Source: Gammaproteobacteria bacterium
GTDB lineage: Bacteria > Pseudomonadota > Gammaproteobacteria > Tethybacterales > CBDBMS01
Direction of reading: 5' to 3'
Assembly (NCBI GenBank): GCA_965207545.1
Contig: CBDBMS010000003.1
Span: 216,634-280,633 of the forward strand
DNA length: 64,000 nt
In this document: one piece after another, positions 11,526-54,200 of the stretch
Layout of the letters: each line of letters begins with the position of its first letter
Numbering within the stretch: position 1 is the first letter of the stretch
Program-made: the position numbers and the translations under genes
The notes under the pieces: model-generated
What the model was told of the DNA's origin: nothing
The model's input: the letters and a program-made list of their open reading frames with translations, nothing else
Database searches by the model: none

Positions 11526-11723
11526 ATCAAAGCCACAGAGCAAACTATTGACACTTAACGCTAGCATGAAAATGTTTTCTCGATATGTTGGGTGGCTGAG
11601 TTTGAAACGTCACTGCGCAAAGAGTGCCAAATGGAGGGAATAGCCAAGGCTAGGGAGAAGGGCGTTTGTAAAGGATGTAAGGTTTCTGTTGATGCGGCGA
11701 AGGTGCGAGAACTATATGGGATG
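11526..11723 (+). pseudogene. Frameshifted serine resolvase/invertase remnant
   Basis: Joining frames gives IKATEQTIDT / NASMKMF / LDMLG / AEFETSLRKECQMEGIAKAREKGVCKGCKVSVDAAKVREL, matching the resolvase E-helix pattern (ATEQPIDT...FLDMLGVFAEFE..LR.ERQ.EGI.KAK..G.YKGR). Confidence 0.75.
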
Positions 11724-11737
11724 CTGAGACATACTTT

Positions 11738-13644
11738 GTTTCAGTTGCTGGGTAGTTGGTTATACTGTTGAACCCCAGTCATTCGTACAGTCCGAACACA
11801 GCAAATGGGGTTTCAGTTGCTGGGTAGTTGGTTATACTGTTGAACCTCAGTACACACATGACTTGACAGTTGACGAGGGTTTCAGTTGCTGGGTAGTTGG
11901 TTATACTGTTGAACCGATGGATCAAATGCCGACAATTTCAATGATTGGACTGTTTCAGTTGCTGGGTAGTTGGTTATACTGTTGAACCAGCCGCCATCGC
12001 GGCGTATGAACAGACATCCATGTGTTTCAGTTGCTGGGTAGTTGGTTATACTGTTGAACCGATTGCAATGATCGAAAACAATGAGAAGCTCCCAGGTTTC
12101 AGTTGCTGGGTAGTTGGTTATACTGTTGAACCTGAAAAATGCGATGTTGAAACGTCGCAAGGGAGTTTCAGTTGCTGGGTAGTTGGTTATACTGTTGAAC
12201 CCGTCATCGACAAAGACGACTTCCACGACCACTTTGTGTTTCAGTTGCTGGGTAGTTGGTTATACTGTTGAACCTTCCACACGCGCCGCCACCCATTTTC
12301 AATCCCAGGTTTCAGTTGCTGGGTAGTTGGTTATACTGTTGAACCGGCCACGGAACCGGCACCTGAAAAACCGGACAGGCGTTTCAGTTGCTGGGTAGTT
12401 GGTTATACTGTTGAACCATCGACGACCGCGAAAGCTTCCGCAAGCCGTGGGGTTTCAGTTGCTGGGTAGTTGGTTATACTGTTGAACCCCAGCGCACTTT
12501 TCCGGGACGGCACCAGACGCGAAGTTTCAGTTGCTGGGTAGTTGGTTATACTGTTGAACCTTGTATGCTGCAGCGATGTTTTTCAGGATGTGTCTTGGTT
12601 TCAGTTGCTGGGTAGTTGGTTATACTGTTGAACCACTGCCAACGGGCGGCCGTCAACCTCGATCTCCAGTTTCAGTTGCTGGGTAGTTGGTTATACTGTT
12701 GAACCCTAACGCACTCCAAAGTCCCTCAGAAGTAACCATCGTTTCAGTTGCTGGGTAGTTGGTTATACTGTTGAACCCGCACGCAGCCCGCCGGGAGCAA
12801 CATACGAGGTCAGCGTTTCAGTTGCTGGGTAGTTGGTTATACTGTTGAACCTTAATTGCGCTCCAGTTGCTGTACTCGGCCATGTGTTTCAGTTGCTGGG
12901 TAGTTGGTTATACTGTTGAACCTTGGCGACCCGTGCTACGTCGTCCAAAGGGATGACGTTTCAGTTGCTGGGTAGTTGGTTATACTGTTGAACCACAACA
13001 TGAAAACACAATGCGTAACGCTCGAACCGTTTCAGTTGCTGGGTAGTTGGTTATACTGTTGAACCGGGCGGCCCCAAACGACTGAACACTTTTGCGGCTG
13101 GGTTTCAGTTGCTGGGTAGTTGGTTATACTGTTGAACCCTGCGTTCTTCCGCGGCGTTCCATTTGAGCGTCCCGTTTCAGTTGCTGGGTAGTTGGTTATA
13201 CTGTTGAACCATCGCCTTGACACTAGGATACCTACGGATTTTCGGAAGTTTCAGTTGCTGGGTAGTTGGTTATACTGTTGAACCAAAGAAAATCCGCCCG
13301 CGCCTCAGAAACAATCTGTCGTTTCAGTTGCTGGGTAGTTGGTTATACTGTTGAACCAACAGTGTCTCGGCCGCGAACAGAAGAAAGTGGTGTTTCAGTT
13401 GCTGGGTAGTTGGTTATACTGTTGAACCCCGTGCAACAAAATCGCGATTATTGCGAAGCGGATGTTTCAGTTGCTGGGTAGTTGGTTATACTGTTGAACC
13501 TCTTCCTCCGGATCAGGAATAACAACAACTACAAAAGTTTCAGTTGCTGGGTAGTTGGTTATACTGTTGAACCGTTGACGCTGGGCTGATTGCCGCCATA
13601 CCCATGGGTTTCAGTTGCTGGGTAGTTGGTTATACTGTTGAACC
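11738..13644 (+). CRISPR. Type II-B CRISPR array: 27 identical 37-nt repeats GTTTCAGTTGCTGGGTAGTTGGTTATACTGTTGAACC and 26 unique spacers of 32-37 nt
   Basis: Counted directly (first repeat 11738-11774, last 13608-13644, mean period ~72 nt). The repeat 5' end GTTTCAGTTGCTG equals the F. novicida type II-B repeat start. crRNA orientation (+) is inferred from pairing with the tracrRNA. Confidence 0.99.
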
Positions 13645-13736: not shown

Positions 13737-13765
13737 TTGCGATGAAATTTTTTTCGTGTTATACT
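13737..13765 (+). promoter_or_regulatory. Sigma70 promoter of the tracrRNA
   Basis: TTGCGA-17 nt-TATACT with an extended -10 TGn; the anti-repeat starts 6 nt downstream. Confidence 0.75.
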
Positions 13766-13770
13766 TATGC

Positions 13771-13892
13771 ACAGTATAACCAATTGCTGATGCACTGTAA
13801 TCAGTAAAACGTATCTTGAACGGACCTCTGCATTGTGCACGTCTGCTCTTGCAGGACAAGGGACAGAAAAGCCACTTTCAAGTGGCTTTTTT
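13771..13892 (+). ncRNA. tracrRNA (type II-B)
   Basis: Starts with ACAGTATAACCAA (13 nt perfectly complementary to the repeat) plus G:U-extended pairing. Continues CTGTAATCA...TTGAACGGACCTCTG...CACGTCTG, closely resembling the F. novicida tracrRNA core, and ends in a GCCAC/GTGGC hairpin with a U-tract. Confidence 0.9.
13867..13892. terminator. Bidirectional intrinsic terminator between tracrRNA and cas4
   Basis: AAAAGCCAC-TTTCAA-GTGGCTTTTTT hairpin with A- and T-tracts on either side, lying between convergent units. Confidence 0.8.
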
Positions 13893-13901
13893 GTTGGCCA
13901 A

Positions 13902-14477
13902 TTACAGGCGGTCATTGCAAAAGTTGACATATTCACAGGCACAACATTGAACAACTGTGGCGCTGGATTCCGGTTTAAATCCGCGATGTAGCATCTGTCT
14001 TATTTCGTGAACAGTTGTCATGACTTCTTGCTGTCTGTCACCAGTCATGTTGATGACGTGCAAAATGTTGCCTTTACCCACCAGAAAGCCAACCGGGCTT
14101 GATTTGGAAAAATGTTTTTCCAACAACATAGCATAGGCCGTCAGTTGCAGGCTATCTCCACGCTTTTTGTTATTTGCCGACAGTTTGAATTCAACGGCAT
14201 AAACCGACTCGCCAGTTTCAATGGCCATATCAACGATGCCATGAATCCCAAGTTCATGGTTCTGCATCGACAAGTTGTGGTATGTCTGCCCCGATTTCAG
14301 TTTGAATCTGGATAGATTACGACGTTGCCACAGTTTTTCTTCCAGTCGATGAAAATTTTCACCCTGTTTAACCCATGAGGGCCGATGGATTGGGGTTTCC
14401 ATCAATTCCATGTAGTACACGACCCTTGGACAGTAACACCATTGGCGAATGAGGTTGACCGGTATGCTAGATAACAA
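13902..14477 (-). CDS. cas4: CRISPR-associated exonuclease Cas4
   Basis: RQWCYCPR, GIVD, VEFK, QLTAYAML and C-terminal C..CEY...C (Fe-S cysteines). TTG start at 14477 with GGAGG, overlapping the cas2 end. Confidence 0.93.
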   Translation of the reverse strand: MLSSIPVNLIRQWCYCPRVVYYMELMETPIHRPSWVKQGENFHRLEEKLWQRRNLSRFKLKSGQTYHNLSMQNHELGIHGIVDMAIETGESVYAVEFKLSANNKKRGDSLQLTAYAMLLEKHFSKSSPVGFLVGKGNILHVINMTGDRQQEVMTTVHEIRQMLHRGFKPESSATVVQCCACEYVNFCNDRL

Positions 14478-14766
14478 GATTTTCCTCCCAGTCCCTGAAA
14501 TCTTCTTCTCTGTGGCCAATAAAGTAGCTTTGTCCCCTGCCGTTGAAATTGGTGTGCGTGATGAGGATCTTATCCGTTTTTTCCAGATCGGCATTCAGAT
14601 AGCGTTTAATGGATTCCAGTTCAGCCAGAGTTAAGTAACCCCAGAATACGGATTTTTGCACGGGTTTAAGCCCATGTTTTCCCAACTCTTTGAAAATTCG
14701 TGTGCGTAGCTTGTTATCTTCCACATCATAGCTAATGAGATATTCCTGACGTAGCGGATAGTTCAT
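14467..14766 (-). CDS. cas2: CRISPR-associated Cas2
   Basis: YLISYDVEDNK.R and GLKPVQKSVF motifs; 99 aa. Confidence 0.95.
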   Translation of the reverse strand: MNYPLRQEYLISYDVEDNKLRTRIFKELGKHGLKPVQKSVFWGYLTLAELESIKRYLNADLEKTDKILITHTNFNGRGQSYFIGHREEDFRDWEENLVI

Positions 14767-14778
14767 GATTTCATCCCG

Positions 14779-15735
14779 TCACCATTTGAACAAATATGGC
14801 TTGTATGCCTTATCGCCATAAAAATGTCCGCATAGGCAGTAAACCTGCCGTTGCATGATGTGTTCAAGTCTGTGTTTCTTTTTGCGGTAGAGATATTTTC
14901 TGGCACAGGTGCGTTGGACTTCGGCAATCAGTGCTTTTTTCAATTCAGTGCCAAGAATTTTTTTGTCTTCGCTACGAGCGCGCAACTTGATAACAGCACG
15001 ATCCACGACCCAGGCGCGGTATTCTTCCATCAGGTCCAGCACCAAGGCCATCTTGCCTGGGCGTTGCCCGTGCATGATGCCAAGATAGGGTTCCAGACCC
15101 GCATTGATGATGGCATTGAGAATATAGTTGCTCAATACCGCATAACCCAGATTGAGCATGGCATTGTTGATCTCCTGGCTGCCTCTGCCTTCGCGCTTGC
15201 TGAAAGAGGAGGAAAACAGTCTTGCTGCCCGAAGTGCCTGGAAATAGGCATTGGCGCTGGCGCCTTCAAAACCCAGCACGGTCTCAATATCCTTGGCCTG
15301 TTTTGCCTTGTCGGTGTTTAACAGTAATTCCCCGGCGGCGGTTTGTAACGCCGGGTGTCGGTGATATTTGTCAAGGTGATTCAAGACTGCGCGCTGATTT
15401 TTGATTTTTGCGATGACAATTTGTTTGGCAAGAGGCAAGGTGCCCCGTTGATAGTATGCCATTTGCGTCATACGCACTGCCACAACGCCATGTTGTGACT
15501 GGCCTAGGATGGCCGAATACGTAACACCGCGAAAATCCAGAAAAAACAGCTTAATGCCACGGCTGCTGAACGCTTCAATCAAGTCACTGGAGACGCTGAC
15601 ACCACGTTTGGCAATGGCAACGGTACAGAGGCGATTAAGCGGGTAATATTGGGTTTTGCCATCCTGCCTGACTGCTAGGCGGTGACTATCCAGCCCCAGA
15701 AAGGCGCCGTAGTCACCGATGACAAGATGTTTCAC
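14779..15735 (-). CDS. cas1: CRISPR-associated integrase Cas1
   Basis: KIKNQ, LGFEGASANAYF, NAMLNLGY, GLEPYLGIMH and DLMEEYR catalytic motifs. Confidence 0.96.
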   Translation of the reverse strand: MKHLVIGDYGAFLGLDSHRLAVRQDGKTQYYPLNRLCTVAIAKRGVSVSSDLIEAFSSRGIKLFFLDFRGVTYSAILGQSQHGVVAVRMTQMAYYQRGTLPLAKQIVIAKIKNQRAVLNHLDKYHRHPALQTAAGELLLNTDKAKQAKDIETVLGFEGASANAYFQALRAARLFSSSFSKREGRGSQEINNAMLNLGYAVLSNYILNAIINAGLEPYLGIMHGQRPGKMALVLDLMEEYRAWVVDRAVIKLRARSEDKKILGTELKKALIAEVQRTCARKYLYRKKKHRLEHIMQRQVYCLCGHFYGDKAYKPYLFKW

Positions 15736-16027: not shown

Positions 16028-19000
16028 TCAAGCAGATTCTATCTTGAGAGGAACGCTTCTTTTATATGTTAGTGTTCTCCCATTGAGACCTTTAAGGCAG
16101 TTAAGCCAACATGTTATGAAATGCAATTGACCCTTGTCTTCAGTGGTTTTTTTGTATTGCTTATTCTTCTTATATTTTTTGTTTATGGTTTCCTGACATT
16201 TTTTGAGTTTCTCTTCCGATTCCTTAATATGCATAAAGCCAGACTTATTCTGGAAATATTTTTTACGGTCCTCTTTAATTTTATCTTTTTCATCCTTCTT
16301 ACCAACTTTCAAACCATCAATATGACAACCGTCATACATGAGGTAAAATAAATCTTCCATGGAAGGTGGTTTTTTGAAAGTGATGCGCCATTTCGAATCG
16401 TCTTTGGACATATATTTGTTTTCAATAGATTCAACATTCTTAAATTTATTACAAGGCACTTTTAATGGATACCATTTATCCTCATCAATAAAAGCACCCT
16501 GTTCCAGAAGAACGGTTTTGATTTTGTCCAGTTCTTTCAACAAAACAATATTTCGTGAGCGAAAATAAGGCGTGAGGCTGGGACAGAGTTTTCCCTGCTT
16601 ATTGCGTATTTTATATAAACCTGTACCGGCATTCCCGCTCTTTTCAGATTGGCACTGATAAATGAACTTGTTATTCCATGTTCTTCTCGCAATAAGCATA
16701 AAACTCTGTCCCTCCGATCTTATTGGCAATGAAAATTCTTTTCGTACTCTTTGGTGAGTTTGGTGAGGAAGATGTTTGTTTGCAAGAAAATGTTTTTCCA
16801 AGAAGTCAGAACAGTCACTTCCAGTACGATCCCATTCCTTATTTAATTTTTTCCATGCTCTGGACAAGGAGGGATTCGGAAAGATCGTCTTCAAGTTTTC
16901 TTCCTTATAATTAAAGTCAGGCTTACCTTCTTTAATTAAGTTCTTGCGTTTGGTGAAATACCAAAGTTTTTGGAGCTTTTTATAGGTATCTCTGTCCTTA
17001 TCCTTCCAGTTATTCGGTGTGTTCTTCGTATTAAAGTGTTCAAGCAAGAATTGCGCTACTTTTGTTTTATCAATCTCGTACAGCCGAATAGTAAAATATT
17101 TATTCCCCAACTTTTGGTTTTCAATAATAATCTTTGGCCACTGTTGCTTTTCGTTTTGGTAACCAAACTGATATTTACCTTCGTTTGGACTATAAAGGCT
17201 AACCAGAGATCCTTCTTCTTCTGGAGATAATTTGCTGCCATAGAGATAATGTTTTTTATTTTCATTTCCAGGCTCTTCTATGTCATGCTCCAAACATGAT
17301 TTGAGTGTCTTCAACTCTAAGAAGCCCTTCCAATAATGCTTCTTGTCACCTGAATCTATTTCGATCAATTTGAGAAAATGCCAGGCACGGGGATTTGAAT
17401 CAAACAGAGTTCTGTGTTCAAAAAAGCCTTCTTTCGCTTTTTTTCGTTTCAATTCCTCCCGATTCATCTTCTCTGGTTTAATTTGAATTGAATCGAAGAT
17501 AGTAGTTTTTTGAGATATCTCACCCGTATCTTTATCCACAGGCCAGAGATTGTATGAATCATTAATTTTAAGTTTGAGGCCGCCATCATTTCTGTGAGAA
17601 TCGGCCATTATGGCAAAGGCGAGTTGCGCATCAATCAGATGTGAGTAATGTAGTTGCGTTTTACCTTCTTGTTTGGTGTATTTTAATATCTCATGGCCGA
17701 TTTTTTCATATTTTTTACGTAAATCATGGATGCCGTCGCCTCGCGTATTGGATTGTGCCTCCACACCCAAATAGTCAAACGACAGCAAATGCTGCTTGTC
17801 GATCTTTTTGGCCCTTTTATACAGATTATTGGCCAGCACCTCGGCAAAATGGCGTTGCGTGCCGTTGACCAACGTTCGGTTGCGATTATCAATAGCGCTA
17901 ATGACTTTCTCGCGTAAGTCATGACCCACCAGAAACAAGGCATGACGGAAGGCTTTTTGCTGTTTTGGAGTTAGGTTGATGAAGCTGTGGTACTTCCCGA
18001 ATTTGAAATTTTCTCCTTTTTCGTCATCGATTTCTTTAATGATCCACTGTTCGATTTCCGAGTCGTCTTTGCTTGTCTCGAACTGTTTCTGTTTATATTC
18101 AGGCTTGAGATTTGCCAGTGAAAATATGTCATGTTTTTTGACTTTCTCATTGCCTTCGTCACTTGCCCAGATTAAATTTGCCTCGTCATTCAAAGTACCC
18201 CACTCGGAAGAACGAGGAATAATGTGATCCCAATCACCGTCCTTCCCTAAAGGTTTATCTGTATATGGGCATATACCCAAACTGGCCTCTCTAATGCGTT
18301 TATCCTTGCTGTCGGCAAGATTGTTCTGTCCTTTTTTTTCCGTACCCTTTGGTTTTTTACCCTTAATCTCTTTCAGGCTCGGTTCAAACTCAAAGCGATT
18401 CGATTCGGTGATAATGGGAACTCGAACTTTTCTGTCCGCTTTCAGATTTTTTTCGATCTTTTCCCATTTGTCCTTAGCTATGGCACCACCAACAATCCGT
18501 GCCATGCGCATGACAGCACCATCAATCAGGCGAGTGGGAATAGCGGGAAGGCGTTGGGCTTTGGCATGGCTTTCTGCGATGTTTTTGCTTGTAATCCTCT
18601 GCATACGCTGCGCGTTATCCACACTGCATACGGCACAGGTTTTGGCGTTGCCGCTACGCTCCTTGAATGCCAGATTGTTGATCTGGGCAAGCAGATAAAC
18701 AGCAGTGGCTGGATTTATATCCCAATGTTTGTCATTGTCATACAAAGGCTCAGTAACTTCCTGGCACAGTTTCTTCGCTCTTTTACAAAACTTATAGAGT
18801 TTAAATGCCTTATCTACTTTCGATTTGTTCACGATTTCCTTGATTTCCTTTTCGGATGGCGAATCGCTTTTCCTTTGATGATAAATGAGACCAAATAGCG
18901 TTTGGATATCCAGCTTCAAGCGTCCTCGACGGTTCTTCTGTTCTTTTGCAGCTTGGTCACAATTTGTCTTTAAAGTATCAATGCCCTTAAGCCAGTTGAA

Positions 19001-21400
19001 TAGTTTTTCATCTACTGTTTTTCCATCACGTTGCTGGACAAATTTTTCTAACTGCTTTGGAGCAATCTGCAACAAGTTTGCCAAATCCCCCAGCATCTGG
19101 TAGTGTTTCTGTCTTGGCTTGTGGTTGCAGTAGGTAAGCAAGTGATCTTTATCATCAAAGCGACCTGTATTTTCATAGCCTCGTCCGTTGATGTAACGGT
19201 ATTCAGGGTGAATGAACATCCTGCCAGCTTTGGCGCGTTGTCTCTGTTTGTAGTATTTGCAGACCAAGTGTAAAAAACTACCTTTTGCGAATATGGCACC
19301 GTTCTGGTAGTTTGTAGAAGTTTTCAAATCATCAGGCAGCTTGCTGATGGCTTCTTTCAACCTGTTTTTTGCCTTTTCTTTCTCTTCGATGGATGATTGT
19401 GATTGTCGACATTTCTTGGCATAGCTGTATATTTCATTCAGTTTAAGAGGATCTTTGACGCGATCAAAAATGAACTGGAGGATCCGGCCATCCAGTTCCT
19501 TGAGTGACCTGCGCCCTGAATCTCTTTTTAGTTCTCCTGTCTTTTCATTGCTGAAGTAGGGTAAGCCTTTGCCGCTTTCTAAGTTCTTCAGTTCTTTCTC
19601 GAAATCTTCCAAATGAACTTTGCTTTTGAGTTCTCTCAGCCACTTTTGCCACTCGGAGTAGTGATTATCCAAATATGTCGGATTGAGTATCAGGGTTTGA
19701 CAACGCGGTGGACGGCGGTTGTTGTTGTCTTGATAGGGGGGAATAGTGCTTTCGGGGTTTTTGTCTAGCCAGAACTTTATTACTGCAATCGGTATTTTTT
19801 TGTCTTTTGTTTTAATGTGGCACTCCTTGTCAGAAACGAATTTTTTCCAACATTCTTTTAAATCCTCATAATTCTGCGCATGACCTTTTGATTTCTTATT
19901 TTTGTCTTTTTCACTTACGCGCCATGCATGTAAAATCCAGTGGTCGAAGATTTGGCTCAGGCGGGCTTCTTTCCAATCATCAGATTTTTGGTGGTTTTTA
20001 TCATTGAAGTATTTACGTAGCGGTTTGAGCTCTAGATTGCTGAGGTGGCCGATCAGCTTGGAGAGTGAATCAATGGTTAAATCAGGATATTCTCCATTGT
20101 GTAATTTCTTGCAAAATCGATCTATGTAGTCGTCACCGGTGGGTGTTCCGTCTTTTTTTCTTCCCTTTGTTCTCTCGTTCTGTAAAACATCTTTTATCTC
20201 AACATAATATTTGCTGCGATGACGACCACCTGATTCCAATTCATCGAGAATCTTTTGCAGGGCAAAGGCAAGATGATGCAGGTGGTTTTTTTGCCACTTT
20301 TTTTCTGATCCAGCATCAGGAGGATCAGCATCCAATTGAGTTTTTTCTATCGAAAACGACTTCCGAAAATTCCAGATATCATCGTTTAATTCTTTTTCCT
20401 TCACCTTCAAAGCGCAGTCCTTCGGGAGGTTGTCCAAAATTTTCTGTCCTGTCGCCTCTCCTGCAAGCATGGACACAAGAGATTTCTGGGAGTTCTCGGA
20501 CCCCGCTAATGCGGCTTGACCAGCTGATTTTCCTGCAAGCATGGACACAAGAGATTTCTGGCAGTCCTGGCAGCTGTCCAAGATTTTCTGTACTTCCGCT
20601 CCGTTTGACGCTTCGCCCCCTTTCGCGCATTGCAAGTTCTGGCAACTGTCCAAAATTTTCTGTACTTCCGCTGTCTTATTTTTACTCAAATAGTTGTCCA
20701 AGTTAACTTTGTCACCCGAAGGAGTAGGAAGTAAATTTTGTACAGGCTGACCCCACTCCTTTAGAAGCCATTTGGGAAAATCAAGATTTATCTTTTTACC
20801 GACAAATTTACTCCATGGTTCTACACAATATTTCTTGAGCTTCTTTGTCTCCTTGATGACAAAAAGCTCCTTACGGATTCGTTTAGGTTCTTCATAAATG
20901 GCATCGAACATGCGCTTTATTTCTTCTTTATCTTTATTAGCCCATTCGGTTAAAGCACTGGCAAAGTCATATTCACCATTGTCGTTTGATTTAATTTTCA
21001 ATTTATCGGGTAAGCATTTATACGCTTTTTCAGGGAATCGGCTCAACACCTCAGCATCATATTCTTCAGTTAAAAAGGTGAACCCCCGGCGATTGAGCAG
21101 AAAGCTGATGGTCTGCTGAATGTCTTTATCCCAATCCAGACCGAAGTGATTTTCCCAGATTAGCTTGAACAGACGTTTGACCATCTGACGACGGTCATAG
21201 CCGCGTCGCTGGTGGCGTGCTGCGGTTCTTTTCTCCATTAACAGTGTATATTTGTCTTCATCAAGTTGGTAGACCTTGCCTTCGCCAGTTTTCCCGACAT
21301 CTTCAATAGAAGCGCCTTCCTCGTAGTGGGCAAAGTAAACCCCGGTATTTTTGGCGCCGAGGTCTATAGAGACAGGGCTGATAATAGTATTTTTGGGCAT
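16028..21400 (-). CDS. cas9: Type II-B Cas9 (Csx12-like), 1790 aa
   Basis: RuvC-I SPVSIDLGAKNTG; bridge helix RTAARHQRRGYDRRQMVKRLF; PPYQDNNNRRPPRCQ; RuvC-II IITESNRFEF; HNH CPYT...DHIIPRS...LNDEANL; RuvC-III HYSHLIDA. Linked to cas1-cas2-cas4. Confidence 0.97.
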   Translation of the reverse strand: MPKNTIISPVSIDLGAKNTGVYFAHYEEGASIEDVGKTGEGKVYQLDEDKYTLLMEKRTAARHQRRGYDRRQMVKRLFKLIWENHFGLDWDKDIQQTISFLLNRRGFTFLTEEYDAEVLSRFPEKAYKCLPDKLKIKSNDNGEYDFASALTEWANKDKEEIKRMFDAIYEEPKRIRKELFVIKETKKLKKYCVEPWSKFVGKKINLDFPKWLLKEWGQPVQNLLPTPSGDKVNLDNYLSKNKTAEVQKILDSCQNLQCAKGGEASNGAEVQKILDSCQDCQKSLVSMLAGKSAGQAALAGSENSQKSLVSMLAGEATGQKILDNLPKDCALKVKEKELNDDIWNFRKSFSIEKTQLDADPPDAGSEKKWQKNHLHHLAFALQKILDELESGGRHRSKYYVEIKDVLQNERTKGRKKDGTPTGDDYIDRFCKKLHNGEYPDLTIDSLSKLIGHLSNLELKPLRKYFNDKNHQKSDDWKEARLSQIFDHWILHAWRVSEKDKNKKSKGHAQNYEDLKECWKKFVSDKECHIKTKDKKIPIAVIKFWLDKNPESTIPPYQDNNNRRPPRCQTLILNPTYLDNHYSEWQKWLRELKSKVHLEDFEKELKNLESGKGLPYFSNEKTGELKRDSGRRSLKELDGRILQFIFDRVKDPLKLNEIYSYAKKCRQSQSSIEEKEKAKNRLKEAISKLPDDLKTSTNYQNGAIFAKGSFLHLVCKYYKQRQRAKAGRMFIHPEYRYINGRGYENTGRFDDKDHLLTYCNHKPRQKHYQMLGDLANLLQIAPKQLEKFVQQRDGKTVDEKLFNWLKGIDTLKTNCDQAAKEQKNRRGRLKLDIQTLFGLIYHQRKSDSPSEKEIKEIVNKSKVDKAFKLYKFCKRAKKLCQEVTEPLYDNDKHWDINPATAVYLLAQINNLAFKERSGNAKTCAVCSVDNAQRMQRITSKNIAESHAKAQRLPAIPTRLIDGAVMRMARIVGGAIAKDKWEKIEKNLKADRKVRVPIITESNRFEFEPSLKEIKGKKPKGTEKKGQNNLADSKDKRIREASLGICPYTDKPLGKDGDWDHIIPRSSEWGTLNDEANLIWASDEGNEKVKKHDIFSLANLKPEYKQKQFETSKDDSEIEQWIIKEIDDEKGENFKFGKYHSFINLTPKQQKAFRHALFLVGHDLREKVISAIDNRNRTLVNGTQRHFAEVLANNLYKRAKKIDKQHLLSFDYLGVEAQSNTRGDGIHDLRKKYEKIGHEILKYTKQEGKTQLHYSHLIDAQLAFAIMADSHRNDGGLKLKINDSYNLWPVDKDTGEISQKTTIFDSIQIKPEKMNREELKRKKAKEGFFEHRTLFDSNPRAWHFLKLIEIDSGDKKHYWKGFLELKTLKSCLEHDIEEPGNENKKHYLYGSKLSPEEEGSLVSLYSPNEGKYQFGYQNEKQQWPKIIIENQKLGNKYFTIRLYEIDKTKVAQFLLEHFNTKNTPNNWKDKDRDTYKKLQKLWYFTKRKNLIKEGKPDFNYKEENLKTIFPNPSLSRAWKKLNKEWDRTGSDCSDFLEKHFLANKHLPHQTHQRVRKEFSLPIRSEGQSFMLIARRTWNNKFIYQCQSEKSGNAGTGLYKIRNKQGKLCPSLTPYFRSRNIVLLKELDKIKTVLLEQGAFIDEDKWYPLKVPCNKFKNVESIENKYMSKDDSKWRITFKKPPSMEDLFYLMYDGCHIDGLKVGKKDEKDKIKEDRKKYFQNKSGFMHIKESEEKLKKCQETINKKYKKNKQYKKTTEDKGQLHFITCWLNCLKGLNGRTLTYKRSVPLKIESA
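20421..20672. repeat. Nested 72-nt-period interrupted direct repeats inside cas9
   Basis: 20459-20496 vs 20531-20568 (38 nt, 2 mismatches); 20563-20600 vs 20635-20672 (38 nt, 3 mismatches); 17-nt exact match 20431-20447 vs 20647-20663 (offset 216 = 3x72). Confidence 0.92.
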
Positions 21401-51251: not shown

Positions 51252-54200
51252 CGAACAAAAACCAAAATCAAGAGTCTTCGGAAGATTCGCAAAGCAGAAG
51301 CCATCCCTACTGGATGAAATGAAGGGTTCGGATAAGGCGAAACAGCCGGCCGATGCTTCTTCGGTTGCGAAGCCTCCACCGCTTCCCACTCCCGTGGCAG
51401 ATGACAGTTCAACACCTGCCGAACAGCCAGCCGCCGCTGCAGCCCCAGCCACTCCGCCCAGGCAGTTTGGAGGTGTGAAGCCGCGGACTCCCATGATGGG
51501 TGCTCCAGGAAACCCGGTTCCGAAAGAATTTCAAGCGACTCCGCCCAAGGCGACTATTCCCCCTAAGCCGCCTGCGGCGCCGGCTTCCGAGCCTGCAGCG
51601 CCTGCGGCCAAGATGACTCCCCCCAAGGCGCCGGTGCCGCCGGCTGCGGCGCCGGCTTCCAAGCCCGCGCCTGCGGCTCCTGCACCCACCCCGGCTGCCC
51701 CAGCTGCGGCTCCTGCACCCAAGCCTGCGCTCACTCCGCCGGCTGCGGCGCCGGCTTCCGAGCCCGCGCCTACGGCTCCTGCACCCACCCCGGCTACCCC
51801 AGCTGCGGCTCCTGCACCCAAGCTTGCGCTCGCTCCGTCGGCTCCTGCGGCGCCGGCTTCCGAGCCCGCGCCTACGGCTCCTGCACCCACCCCGGCTGCC
51901 CCAGCTGCGGCTCCTGCACCCAAGCCTGCGGCGGCACCTGCGCCCACACTCGCAGGGGGCTCTCTTGCCTTTGCCCAAAAGGGTTCTTCCGGCCAGAAGA
52001 TGGGCCGTGCCGCGGTAGCTCCCCCGCCCATGCCTGATCGCCCGAAAGATACGTCGGCACCCAAGCTTGCCAAACGGTCTGCAGCTGCACCTTCCCCAGA
52101 TGACCTCTCCTCTGATGTTGCAGAAGAGGCGGCTGTAGCATCCCCAGTCTTGGCACAGGCCGCTCCCCCCGTTGCAGAAGTTCCCGCGGCTGAAGAGGCC
52201 ATCCAATTCCCGAAAGCGCCACCCGTGAAGGGAATCACAATACCGTCGCGCGGCACCATCTCGGGAGAAGGTGATTTAAAGGATTCACATACAAGTTCCG
52301 TTGACATGGATGAGGTGCTGAAACAGATCAAGGAGGATTCGATCGGCACCCGTGTGGTCCAGATTTCCCAGGCATACTCCCTCCTGTCGACACATTGGAT
52401 CAAGGAGCACAAGGGCATGGTCATCGCCATCTTCCTGGTCGTGGTCGTGGTCGTGGGAGGCATTAACGCATTTAACACCTTTTATCCCCGGTATCTGGAG
52501 GAGAAGGCCCTGACGGCGTATGAGAACGACCTCTACCAGGAAGCAATCGATGCCGTTGAGGACTACCGGAAATACGACACCGATAATTTCGGCCTTGTCT
52601 ATCTTTTGGCTCGTGCCAAGCTCAAACAGGGGGATTTTTCCGGCGCCCTTGACGAGTTCAACCTGTTGTCCAGTTTCAGCGATGTTCCCAACCAGGCTGA
52701 TGTAGACTTCTACTTCTACCAGGGACTGATCGGACACGAGAGCGTTGAGGACGCACTCCGGAATCTGGCACGTGCACTCGAAGCTGATTCCAACCACCTA
52801 CCATCAAGGCTTCTAAGGAGAATCTACGGCGCCATGGCATCGAGCAGCCTTAGCAGCGAGATTGTAGATCAGTATCTGGGCGAGGTAAAGCAGATTGACC
52901 GTCTTGATGGTGAGAAATACGTCGAGCAGCTTAATGTGATGCTTGTCTATCTATTGGAGCACTCAGAGAGAATATTCGGGACAATCAGGCCGATAAGTGC
53001 ACGCCCTCTCCAAGTGAGAGATATCTCGGGCGTTGGGGTTGGATTCAAGAACGAATACACAGTTGACATGTCGGGCATTGTTGAGAAAGATGTCTACGAT
53101 CCTGCGCACATCGTTGATGTGCTCAAGTTTCTTGCTATCCAGATGGGTGGAAACTACGAGGATAGCGAACTGGGCTATCTGGCCGGGATTTTTGCCGACC
53201 AGTACACAAAGCGGGCTGACTACCATCTGGGAGGGTTCCTTGCCGGCGTATATGCGGCGTCCCAGCTGGATTACAGCGATGCGTACAAGTTCTTCGACCA
53301 GGTTTCCCAGGCATATTCGGGGGATCCGAGCGTTCTGCTGAACAAGGCGACGGCACGCCTGTTCAGCACGCCTGATGCGTTCATCCTGTCCTTCGATGAC
53401 TACAACAACGTGCTCACTGTCGAAACAGAAAACGTTCTTGGCCTCAACAACCGGGGCTTCATCAATCTCTGGTTCACCGACAACCTGAACAAGGCGAAGC
53501 AGGACCTCGCAAGGGCAATGAAAGTCGCCCCCGATGACATTTCCGTCATCTACAATCTCGCCCAGACCCACCATGTTGCCGGGGAGAACAGCGATGCGGT
53601 TCCGCTGTTCGACAAGGTGGTCGAGCAGAATCCCGTCTATGGAAACGTTTATCTTTACAGAGGCCTTAGCTATAAGGCCACAGGTCAGCTTGAAAAGGCA
53701 GTCAAGGACTTCAATGACTTCAAGATCCAAGACCCGCAGAGCGTTGAGCCCTATGTCCAGAACGCCATCTTGTTCGATGACAGCGCCGGCTACAAGCTGG
53801 CAATCAGGGAGTTGACCAAGGCTCTTACCATCAAGCCGAATGATGACAGGATTGAAACCATTCTGGCGGATTTCTATCTCAAGGCCGACCGCATATTTGA
53901 TGCCGAGAGGTTGCTTGAGAGTATCGGCGATTCGGACAATCCCAGTATCAGGCTTCTGAGAGGCAGACTGCTTCTCAGCCAGGAGGATCCAAGTGCGGAG
54001 TCGGTGCTCAAGACCGTCTACGACGAGTATCTTGCCACCCCTGAGCGGGAAAGGCTGCAGAACGTGGAGGTGTTCATCTACTATCTGGATGCGCTGCTGT
54101 TGAACAACAAGGTCGACCTGATGGTTGATGTGGCATCAGCCGCTCCGGCAGACCTCCAGAATGACATTGAGATACTGAAGCGCCAAGCAACCGCACTTAA

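Follow-up and report, generated by a model that had tools for sequence, protein, structure and literature searches.

A 64,000-nucleotide (nt) stretch of a gammaproteobacterial genome, hereafter the window, carries a type II-B CRISPR-Cas locus whose effector gene, cas9, contains 216 nt that its relatives lack. We consider it probable, chiefly on evidence from elsewhere in the genome, that this extra DNA was added by three nested off-target spacer integrations performed by the Cas1-Cas2-Cas4 module of the same locus. Across the 1.66-Mb genome, at least eight misfired integrations seem to have occurred at six loci, three of them in cas9, where they would have given the protein 72 additional amino acids (aa). 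That off-target integration has taken place in this genome in general we regard as nearly certain. Unprefixed coordinates below refer to the window, and those prefixed C3 to the contig of that label in the assembly.

The repeated region comprises codons 243-327 of cas9, a single open frame of 1790 codons on the minus strand (16028..21400). A repeat search detected two pairs of 38-nt direct repeats, each interrupted by unique sequence: pair A (D2), at 20459-20496 and 20531-20568 (95% identical), and pair B (D1), at 20563-20600 and 20635-20672 (92% identical). A third copy, at 20419-20456 and 216 nt from the first, has 68% identity with the reference copy; the starts of successive copies are 144 and 72 nt apart. 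Followed along the coding strand (all elements lie on the minus strand), the region begins with X1 (20635..20672), the copy of duplication B nearer the cas9 5′ end, which encodes AEVQKILDSCQN and matches in register at 35/38 positions; X1 and the third copy have in common a 17-nt exact run, at 20431-20447. Next come sB (20601..20634), the unique 34-nt insert assigned to event B, with 21/34 G+C and translated as part of ..LQCAKGGEASNG.., and X2 (20563..20600), which is both the second copy of duplication B and the upstream copy of the putative oldest duplication (event 1). Y1 (20531..20568), a copy of duplication A, overlaps X2 by 6 nt, consists mostly of the putative oldest insert, s1, and encodes ..QKSLVSMLAG. 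It is followed by sA (20497..20530), the unique 34-nt insert assigned to event A, with 20/34 G+C and translated as part of ..KSAGQAALAGSE.., by Y2 (20459..20496), which is 95% identical to Y1, and by X3 (20419..20456), the downstream copy of the oldest duplication, which retains the ancestral ..ILDNLPKD ending (ILDSLPD in relatives). Divided into 72-nt units, the coding strand thus reads X+sB, X+Y, sA+Y, and X3 with the sequence beyond it. The duplications measure 38, 38, and approximately 38 nt (35-38 nt if chance matches at their ends are allowed for), and the inserts measure 34, 34, and 34 nt.

Comparison of neighboring units showed that identity is confined to one part of each. Units 0 and 1 match at 35/38 positions in their first part and at 8/34 in the remainder, where random pairs of cas9 segments gave a mean of 9.1; units 1 and 2 match at 37/40 positions in their last part (unit positions 33-72) and at 12/32 in the first (null mean, 8.5; P = 0.13). 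Homology over the full 72 nt, as expected of tandem units, was thus not seen. The older relationship, between X2 and X3, amounts to 26/38 identities, a value reached by 0 of approximately 20,000 random pairs of cas9 38-mers (maximum, 23). The cas9 repeats were not called by Tandem Repeats Finder, which is unsurprising given that they are interrupted. A sequence-only reading of this DNA had described both 38-nt pairs, the two 34-mers, and an older third copy, and every one of these elements was recovered at the same positions. That reading also regarded the 34-mers as GC-rich for cas9, and the composition bears this out: their G+C content is 59-62%, against 0.41 for cas9, placing sA and sB in the top 4.1% and 1.9% of cas9 34-nt windows, respectively. 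In this respect the inserts resemble the spacers of the type II-B array (mean G+C, ∼0.55) and are unlike cas9. Its further claim, that the 72-nt period equals that of the array, also agrees with the data. In the array (11738..13644; no strand assigned), a 37-nt repeat recurs 27 times without variation around 26 spacers of 32-37 nt; the periods are 69-74 nt, with 72 in 9/26.

To place the extra DNA in an evolutionary context, we searched Cas9 residues 100-500 against 5.8 billion proteins, which yielded 182 homologues, the closest only 48% identical over those residues. The sequence-only reading had anticipated relatives shorter by whole 72-nt units. When the top 40 were aligned, each of the 39 relatives proved to be shorter here by exactly 72 residues (216 nt), and of the 120 relatives fetched, 116 fill with 17-28 residues a span that takes up 93 in this Cas9. 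The remaining four comprise three without residues in the span and one (P0071) that is misaligned. Relatives carry a single, conserved motif, ..YLN.Q.PEVA..ILDSLPD; here, the first copy bears its start (..AEVQKILD) and the last copy its end (..ILDNLPKD). On these alignments, the extra DNA is 216 nt, or 3 × 72, is lineage specific, and lies inside a conserved helix assigned to the recognition (REC) lobe. That assignment, also made in the sequence-only reading, is backed by two comparisons: Pfam family PF21069 (Cas9 alpha-helical lobe) covers residues 55-935, and the best match in the PDB, FnCas9 5B2O (E = 3e-100 over the first 600 residues), aligns on both sides of the insert (query residues 5-171 and 341-596). 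A search among shorter proteins for an intermediate allele returned a single match, P0121, which is 39% identical and not a close fragment, and a DNA search for a closer cas9 in 40 related genomes returned no match. In the alignment, P0071 (1990 aa) itself seems to contain a portion of its N-terminal region twice (..HLAFALHKI..SGG.HRS.., then again ..EEYDA..FP.EA..), which points to a large duplication of another kind within that protein.

The same signature recurs outside cas9. We scanned the whole assembly (1.66 Mb in three contigs) for direct repeats at every spacing, after masking three CRISPR arrays and five tandem or low-complexity direct-repeat regions. With at least 29/34 matches required, isolated repeats at spacings of 40-139 nt occurred only at 70 (one locus), 72 (three loci), and 73 nt (two loci). 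With at least 29/37 matches required, six loci fell at spacings of 69-74 nt, against three over 59 other spacings, a chance rate of approximately 0.05 isolated repeats per spacing value outside 69-74 in this genome. Measured against this rate, the cas9 repeats greatly exceed chance. The sequence-only reading had proposed looking for other interrupted duplications of about 37 + 35 nt, and five such loci emerged besides cas9. Two lie within genes that remain in frame: a GRDP-like protein gene (C3:84065-84173; duplication of ∼35 nt, 30/35 identical; insert of ∼37 nt) and an ankyrin protein gene (C3:1341164-1341272; duplication of 37 nt with 3 mismatches; insert of 35 nt, at a two-repeat junction). 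A third, in a PhoD-like gene (Pfam PF09423; C3:207272-207381), has an exact 37-nt duplication around a frameshifting 36-nt insert. The last two are intergenic, at C3:902349-902457 (duplication of 36 nt with 1 mismatch; insert of 37 nt) and C3:1542563-1542669 (exact duplication of 37 nt; insert of 33 nt). At the five non-cas9 loci, the lengths of the duplications (35-37 nt) and of the inserts (33-37 nt) thus match the 37-nt repeats and 32- to 37-nt spacers of the type II-B array, and the copies at the isolated loci differ from each other at 0 to 5 positions. The type II-B cas1 has two of the six loci within 25 kb of it (P = 0.013; post hoc), which may indicate that the integrase acts in the vicinity of the gene encoding it.

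Where relatives could be compared, we looked for the empty site at these loci as well. In the PhoD-like gene, the added 73 nt split the coding sequence into two frames and the peptide VNVCILSGDVHM is duplicated, with the alignment following frame -3 up to ..VCILSGDVH. and resuming in frame -1 where the peptide occurs for the second time. Orthologues from three related genomes, 38-48% identical, run through colinearly with a single copy and without the insert. Such a contrast between empty and filled site is what a 73-nt integration should leave, and the locus looks like a very recent gene knockout by the same process. An orthologue of the GRDP-like protein ends after two CWHxC motifs where three are present here, which is consistent with an empty site, the tail being too diverged for residues to be counted. 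For the ankyrin gene, no usable orthologue was obtained from a family too large and repetitive for the purpose, and the locus at C3:1542563 had no match in relatives. At C3:902349, four relatives matched only a conserved piece of 44-49 nt approximately 85 nt away and thus offered no empty site. This piece (C3:902542-902591), 80-98% identical in four related genomes, we take to be a tRNA-Lys 3′ half encoded on the minus strand, although ARAGORN and Rfam called nothing there; it may be an attachment-site remnant.

Comparison of the inserts with the organism's own genome (blastn-short) identified donors: three of the five non-cas9 inserts are copies of distant chromosomal DNA. The insert at C3:207309 matches C3:166076-166112 at 37/37 positions, that at C3:902385 matches C3:55965-56001 at 34/37, and that at C3:1542599 matches C3:1041150-1041183 on the other strand at 34/34; no donor was found for the inserts at the two older non-cas9 loci. 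The PhoD-like region had already, unexpectedly, hit a second location in this genome in a DNA search. The donors lie in genes that, from their open reading frame translations, are ftsH-like (C3:166076-166112), dehydrogenase-like, and coupling-protein-like. In one orientation, the trinucleotide CGG lies directly 3′ of all three known donors. The chance of three donors having such a flank in common is approximately 1e-4 for CGG and 3e-3 for NGG, and is somewhat higher if a 1-nt border uncertainty at two sites is taken into account. NGG is the protospacer-adjacent motif (PAM) of Francisella novicida Cas9. When the C3:207272, C3:902349, and C3:1542669 loci are oriented by the donor CGG, GGA stands immediately upstream of the left target copy (post hoc; the chance of three sites having any one trinucleotide in common is 3e-4 per position examined), and this flank was not seen at the older loci. 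An 11-nt word, CAATTAGCGGT, is common to the C3:1542599-1542632 insert, its donor, and the repeat of the genome's type II-C array (C3:1326741 onward), perhaps by chance. The ends of the C3:902349 duplication (GTTTC..CAAC) were considered as a likeness to the CRISPR repeat and given no weight, the likeness being at chance level.

The 26 spacers of the type II-B array had no match in the organism's own genome. One reading of this contrast with the self-derived isolated inserts is that self spacers are acquired but survive only where they are unable to guide Cas9, which would fit the 0/26 self spacers in the array. The cas9 inserts behaved differently from the three with donors. Against the organism's own genome, the cas9 34-mers gave only chance matches of at most 16 nt (blastn-short), with none elsewhere in cas9, which speaks against an origin from neighboring cas9 sequence. 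The sequence-only reading had pointed to phage, plasmid, or host DNA as places to look for their source, but no donor came to light there: positions 20419-20672 had no match at E ≤ 1 (blastn) among 50,697 phage and 72,556 plasmid records, and neither IMG/VR nor the JGI metagenome contigs contained the exact 34-mers, in a scan that would miss a donor diverged by a single base. A comparison of the whole array with phages and plasmids likewise found no protospacer. Since a chromosomal donor of A or B diverged by a few percent would have been detected, inserts A and B likely came from a foreign or lost source.

These observations can be accommodated by the chemistry of spacer acquisition. In canonical acquisition, the integrase would join a prespacer of approximately 35 bp to both ends of the 37-bp leader-proximal repeat by staggered attacks 37 bp apart, and gap repair would then duplicate the repeat. 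At a non-CRISPR site, the same chemistry would produce a target duplication of approximately 37 bp around an insert of approximately 35 bp, adding approximately 72 bp. In cas9, event 1 would have made a second copy of the stretch that encodes AEVQKILD.. and placed s1 (now ..QKSLVSMLAGE..) between the two. Event B would later have used the same target at the upstream copy, giving X1-sB-X2, and event A a target shifted by 32 nt, made up of the last part of X2 together with most of s1, from which Y1-sA-Y2 would result. The order follows from the divergence of the copies, which differ at 12/38 positions for event 1 and at 2 and 3 of 38 for A and B, one of these being a shared later change; event 1 would thus be old, and A and B younger. 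The geometry, the lack of the 72 residues in relatives, the dissimilarity of the unique parts to their neighbors, and the recurrence of the signature with traceable donors are observations; the catalysis by Cas1-Cas2, the order of events, the filtering by frame, and the foreign origin of the cas9 inserts we infer. Each event would have lengthened the gene by 72 nt (24 codons, none of them a stop), such that cas9 stayed open and the inserts came to be translated within the alpha-helical (REC) lobe. The site would then resemble a nascent array, with one target used twice, the newest insert at one end, and the third event offset.

If insertions arose in this manner, those in genes should be filtered by reading frame, as the sequence-only reading had predicted in holding that only frame-preserving events survive. 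All five inserts in still-open genes add 72 nt, whereas only 11 of the 26 array periods are multiples of 3 (P = 0.014), and the three inserts free of frame constraint add 73, 73, and 70 nt. This pattern suggests that selection on frame filtered the events. The genome-wide loci and their donors lend strong, independent support to the central proposal of that reading, off-target acquisition into cas9, and of the four contrary outcomes that it named, the three open to testing were not observed.

We weighed four other explanations. The most familiar is tandem duplication of a 72-nt (24-codon) unit by slippage or unequal crossing-over, followed by divergence and patchy gene conversion. Slippage would occur readily between two 38-nt copies 72 nt apart, the period divides evenly into codons, and there are weak peptide echoes among the Gly/Ala-rich parts (GGEASNG, AGEATG, and AGKSAG). 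However, the unique halves match one another at chance (8/34, 9/34, 10/34, and 12/32), whereas the shared halves are 92-95% identical, and this rules out plain tandem duplication. In addition, the three novel 34-nt segments are absent from relatives and so did not come from preexisting cas9 sequence, and slippage leaves unexplained the five other loci of the same geometry as well as inserts derived from distant genes. Even with conversion added, we judge this explanation very unlikely and close to refuted. Slightly better placed, though still very unlikely, is another process that copied about 35 nt into a break with staggered ends of about 37 nt (filler-DNA capture, template switching, or an unrecognized mobile-element enzyme) and matches type II-B dimensions by coincidence. 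In its favor, the catalyst is known only by inference, the targets do not resemble CRISPR repeats, and donors of the cas9 inserts were not found. Against it, the duplications (35-38 nt) and inserts (33-37 nt) fit type II-B values at 8/8 events, and CGG follows all three known donors. Known transposons and casposons produce much shorter target duplications.

Two further explanations concern the source of the enzyme and the integrity of the assembly. The genome has two cas1 genes and a complete type II-C cas9-cas1-cas2 locus (C3:1322017-1326671) with a 36-nt repeat, within 1 nt of the duplications, and this second Cas1-Cas2 pair might have made the events. Its own spacers, however, are 30 nt long (29 nt in 2/15), with a period of 66 nt (65 in two), against 33-37 nt for the ectopic inserts. 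Because both the type II-C and the type VI-A arrays have periods of 66 nt and no isolated repeat was found at a spacing of 66, the evidence points to the type II-B integrase, and we hold a type II-C origin to be highly improbable. Least probable of all, to the point of being barely credible, is an assembly artifact or chimeric bin in which reads were misjoined. The assembly is indeed of an uncultured organism, in three contigs, and short-read graphs break at a 31-nt exact repeat. Nevertheless, contigs from three public sequencing runs (two samples, one study) match window positions 20000-21100 with 0 differences, such that the misassembly envisaged as a counterargument in the sequence-only reading did not materialize. 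One Logan contig piece (20460-20560) bridges Y2, sA, and Y1, and another single piece spans both copies of pair B. The 1790-aa frame is open, and the same signature occurs at five unrelated loci. This read evidence consists of contigs built from 31-mers, in which a deletion allele of pair A could not show.

Several points weigh against off-target integration by the type II-B module. The targets are unlike the CRISPR repeat (mean best identity, 13.5/37, versus a null value of 13.3; P = 0.39), and such likeness therefore accounts neither for the attraction of the integrase to them nor for three events within one 250-nt stretch of cas9. For the three cas9 inserts, neither donor nor PAM was found in the organism's own genome, phages, plasmids, IMG/VR, or JGI contigs. 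Two routes to an independent check on CGG as a PAM came up empty: no protospacers were found for the array spacers, and the last 400 residues of Cas9 had no sequence match in the PDB. The databases searched hold no close relative of this cas9, and alleles with zero, one, or two units are thus not visible. The sole support for the oldest event is the 26/38 identity, and the runs covering the cas9 region all come from one study, probably the source of the assembly itself.

With these points taken into account, off-target integration by the type II-B module remains the reading we favor, and its parts can be compared with systems already described. Nivala, Shipman, and Church reportedly described off-target ("non-canonical") spacer integration and neo-CRISPR formation with the Escherichia coli type I-E system in 2018. 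As in the E. coli work, a spacer is found outside an array, a target of repeat length is duplicated, and reuse of a site could seed an array. In contrast to over-produced type I-E proteins, the present case is natural, involves a type II-B system with Cas4, is fixed in a genome, and comes with donors and a PAM-like CGG. According to three sources, that study saw off-target integration when Cas1-Cas2 was over-produced in E. coli, proposed that new arrays could arise from it, and noted circumstantial signs of it in two other species (PMC6698737; PMC7054753; bioRxiv 10.1101/148544). Unlike that work as cited, five of the eight events here are translated in frame, three of them in the effector gene. 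Shmakov et al. are said to have described isolated or mini CRISPR arrays in 2020, with off-target acquisition as one origin. The loci reported here share with such arrays the possession of two or three "repeats" and one or two "spacers" far from a leader, but the repeats are pieces of host genes (cas9, PhoD-like, ankyrin, and GRDP-like) rather than copies of a CRISPR repeat, and it is unlikely that these neo-repeats give functional CRISPR RNAs. A further source cites that study for off-target acquisition as one origin of isolated arrays (PMC13142298).

Canonical type II acquisition resembles the present events in its repeat-length duplication, its spacer-length insert, and a spacer taken from beside a PAM-like CGG. 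It differs in that the targets here have neither repeat likeness nor leader, and in that three of the five isolated inserts are self derived, against 0/26 of the array spacers. Published sources describe duplication of the leader-proximal repeat with PAM choice by Cas9 or Cas4 (PMC13034035; bioRxiv 10.1101/2025.06.12.659315 and 659244) and promiscuous integration in vitro and, by citation, by the type V-C mini-integrase (PMC13769266; PMC13034035). Transposons and casposons also duplicate their targets through staggered integrase attack and gap repair, but the inserts here are 33-37 nt long, lack ends or genes of their own, and are flanked by duplications (∼37 nt) as long as themselves. In-frame protein repeat expansion has in common with the cas9 region a 24-residue periodicity and repeated peptides (QKILDSCQ and QKSLVSMLAG), but the units here share complementary halves only, the other halves being unrelated. 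Our literature searches turned up no natural events of this in-frame kind, whether in coding genes or in cas9, a mention in the 2018 or 2020 studies named above or in supplements being possible, and natural, translated, in-frame off-target events, including those in cas9, appear to be new.

The locus that would supply the integrase is a type II-B CRISPR-Cas system, with a Csx12-kind Cas9 and adjoining cas1, cas2, and cas4, all three on the minus strand downstream of cas9. In profile searches, Cas9 matched the TIGR03031 equivalog (E = 1.1e-178; 596 bits versus a cutoff of 399). The presumed integrase gene, cas1 (14779..15735), matched TIGR00287 (E = 4e-59; 200 bits versus 71.7), cas2 (14467..14766) matched TIGR01573 (E = 1.1e-7; 32.1 bits versus 24.5), and cas4 (13902..14594) matched TIGR00372 (E = 4.9e-26; 91.7 bits versus 65). 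Between cas4 and the array lies an anti-repeat-like stretch (13765..13801; no strand assigned) that matches the reverse complement of the repeat at 23/37 positions and is a candidate trans-activating CRISPR RNA, with promoter-like hexamers beside it on both strands. A weak repeat-like stretch (19/37) is present at 11682-11718, 56 nt before the first array repeat. The G+C content of the cas locus is approximately 0.40-0.45, compared with approximately 0.6 in its flanks. Elsewhere in the window, a G+C-rich 99-nt tandem repeat at 51637-51930 (2.9 copies, 94% matches) probably encodes a Pro/Ala-rich protein repeat.

The genome as a whole is small and rich in ankyrin genes, and it encodes three CRISPR-Cas systems: type II-B, type II-C, and type VI-A (Cas13a). 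The type II-C set (C3:1322017-1327760) comprises a Cas9 of 1133 aa, cas1, cas2, and an array with 36-nt repeats and 30-nt spacers. The type VI-A Cas13a has its own array of the same 36/30 dimensions (C3:1058623-1063590), in which identical consecutive spacers occur in runs and blocks of three are repeated (C3:1062495-1063220); beyond this array, a 73-nt unit is perfectly repeated in tandem about three times (C3:1063583-1063800). Contig C1 (23,509 nt) repeats a 7,531-nt unit head to tail in approximately 3.1 copies, with 98.4% identity at this offset, and may represent a small circular element that was assembled into a concatemer. The FtsH protein shares 74-79% identity with its counterparts in betaproteobacterial genomes, for example, those of Rhodocyclaceae, Thauera, Gallionella, and Nitrosomonas.

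Until now, spacer integration at off-target sites has been known chiefly from the laboratory, from over-produced E. coli Cas1-Cas2 and from in vitro systems, and it is invoked to account for the origin of new arrays. If the interpretation given here is true, this genome would hold a natural record of the process, with eight fixed events at six loci, self donors beside a PAM-like CGG, one gene knocked out, and five events that are now translated, including the three in cas9. We think it reasonably likely, if less so than the integrations themselves, that the type II-B module acts as a low-level insertional mutator across the genome, that its 72-nt inserts become 24 residues at tolerant sites, and that in this way the REC lobe of its own effector has been rebuilt, the cas9 site being like a nascent array within an open reading frame. 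A bolder and less likely proposal is that the insert was kept because it changed the behavior of Cas9, in guide or target handling or in escape from inhibitors. The finding would bear on the natural fidelity of type II-B integrases and the cost of their misfires, on what makes an off-target site, and on whether self DNA is routinely sampled and purged only from the real array (0/26 versus 3/5 self). A duplication of repeat length around an insert of spacer length would offer a search signature for all CRISPR-bearing genomes, and integrase misfiring may prove to be a general, datable source of 24-residue protein insertions.

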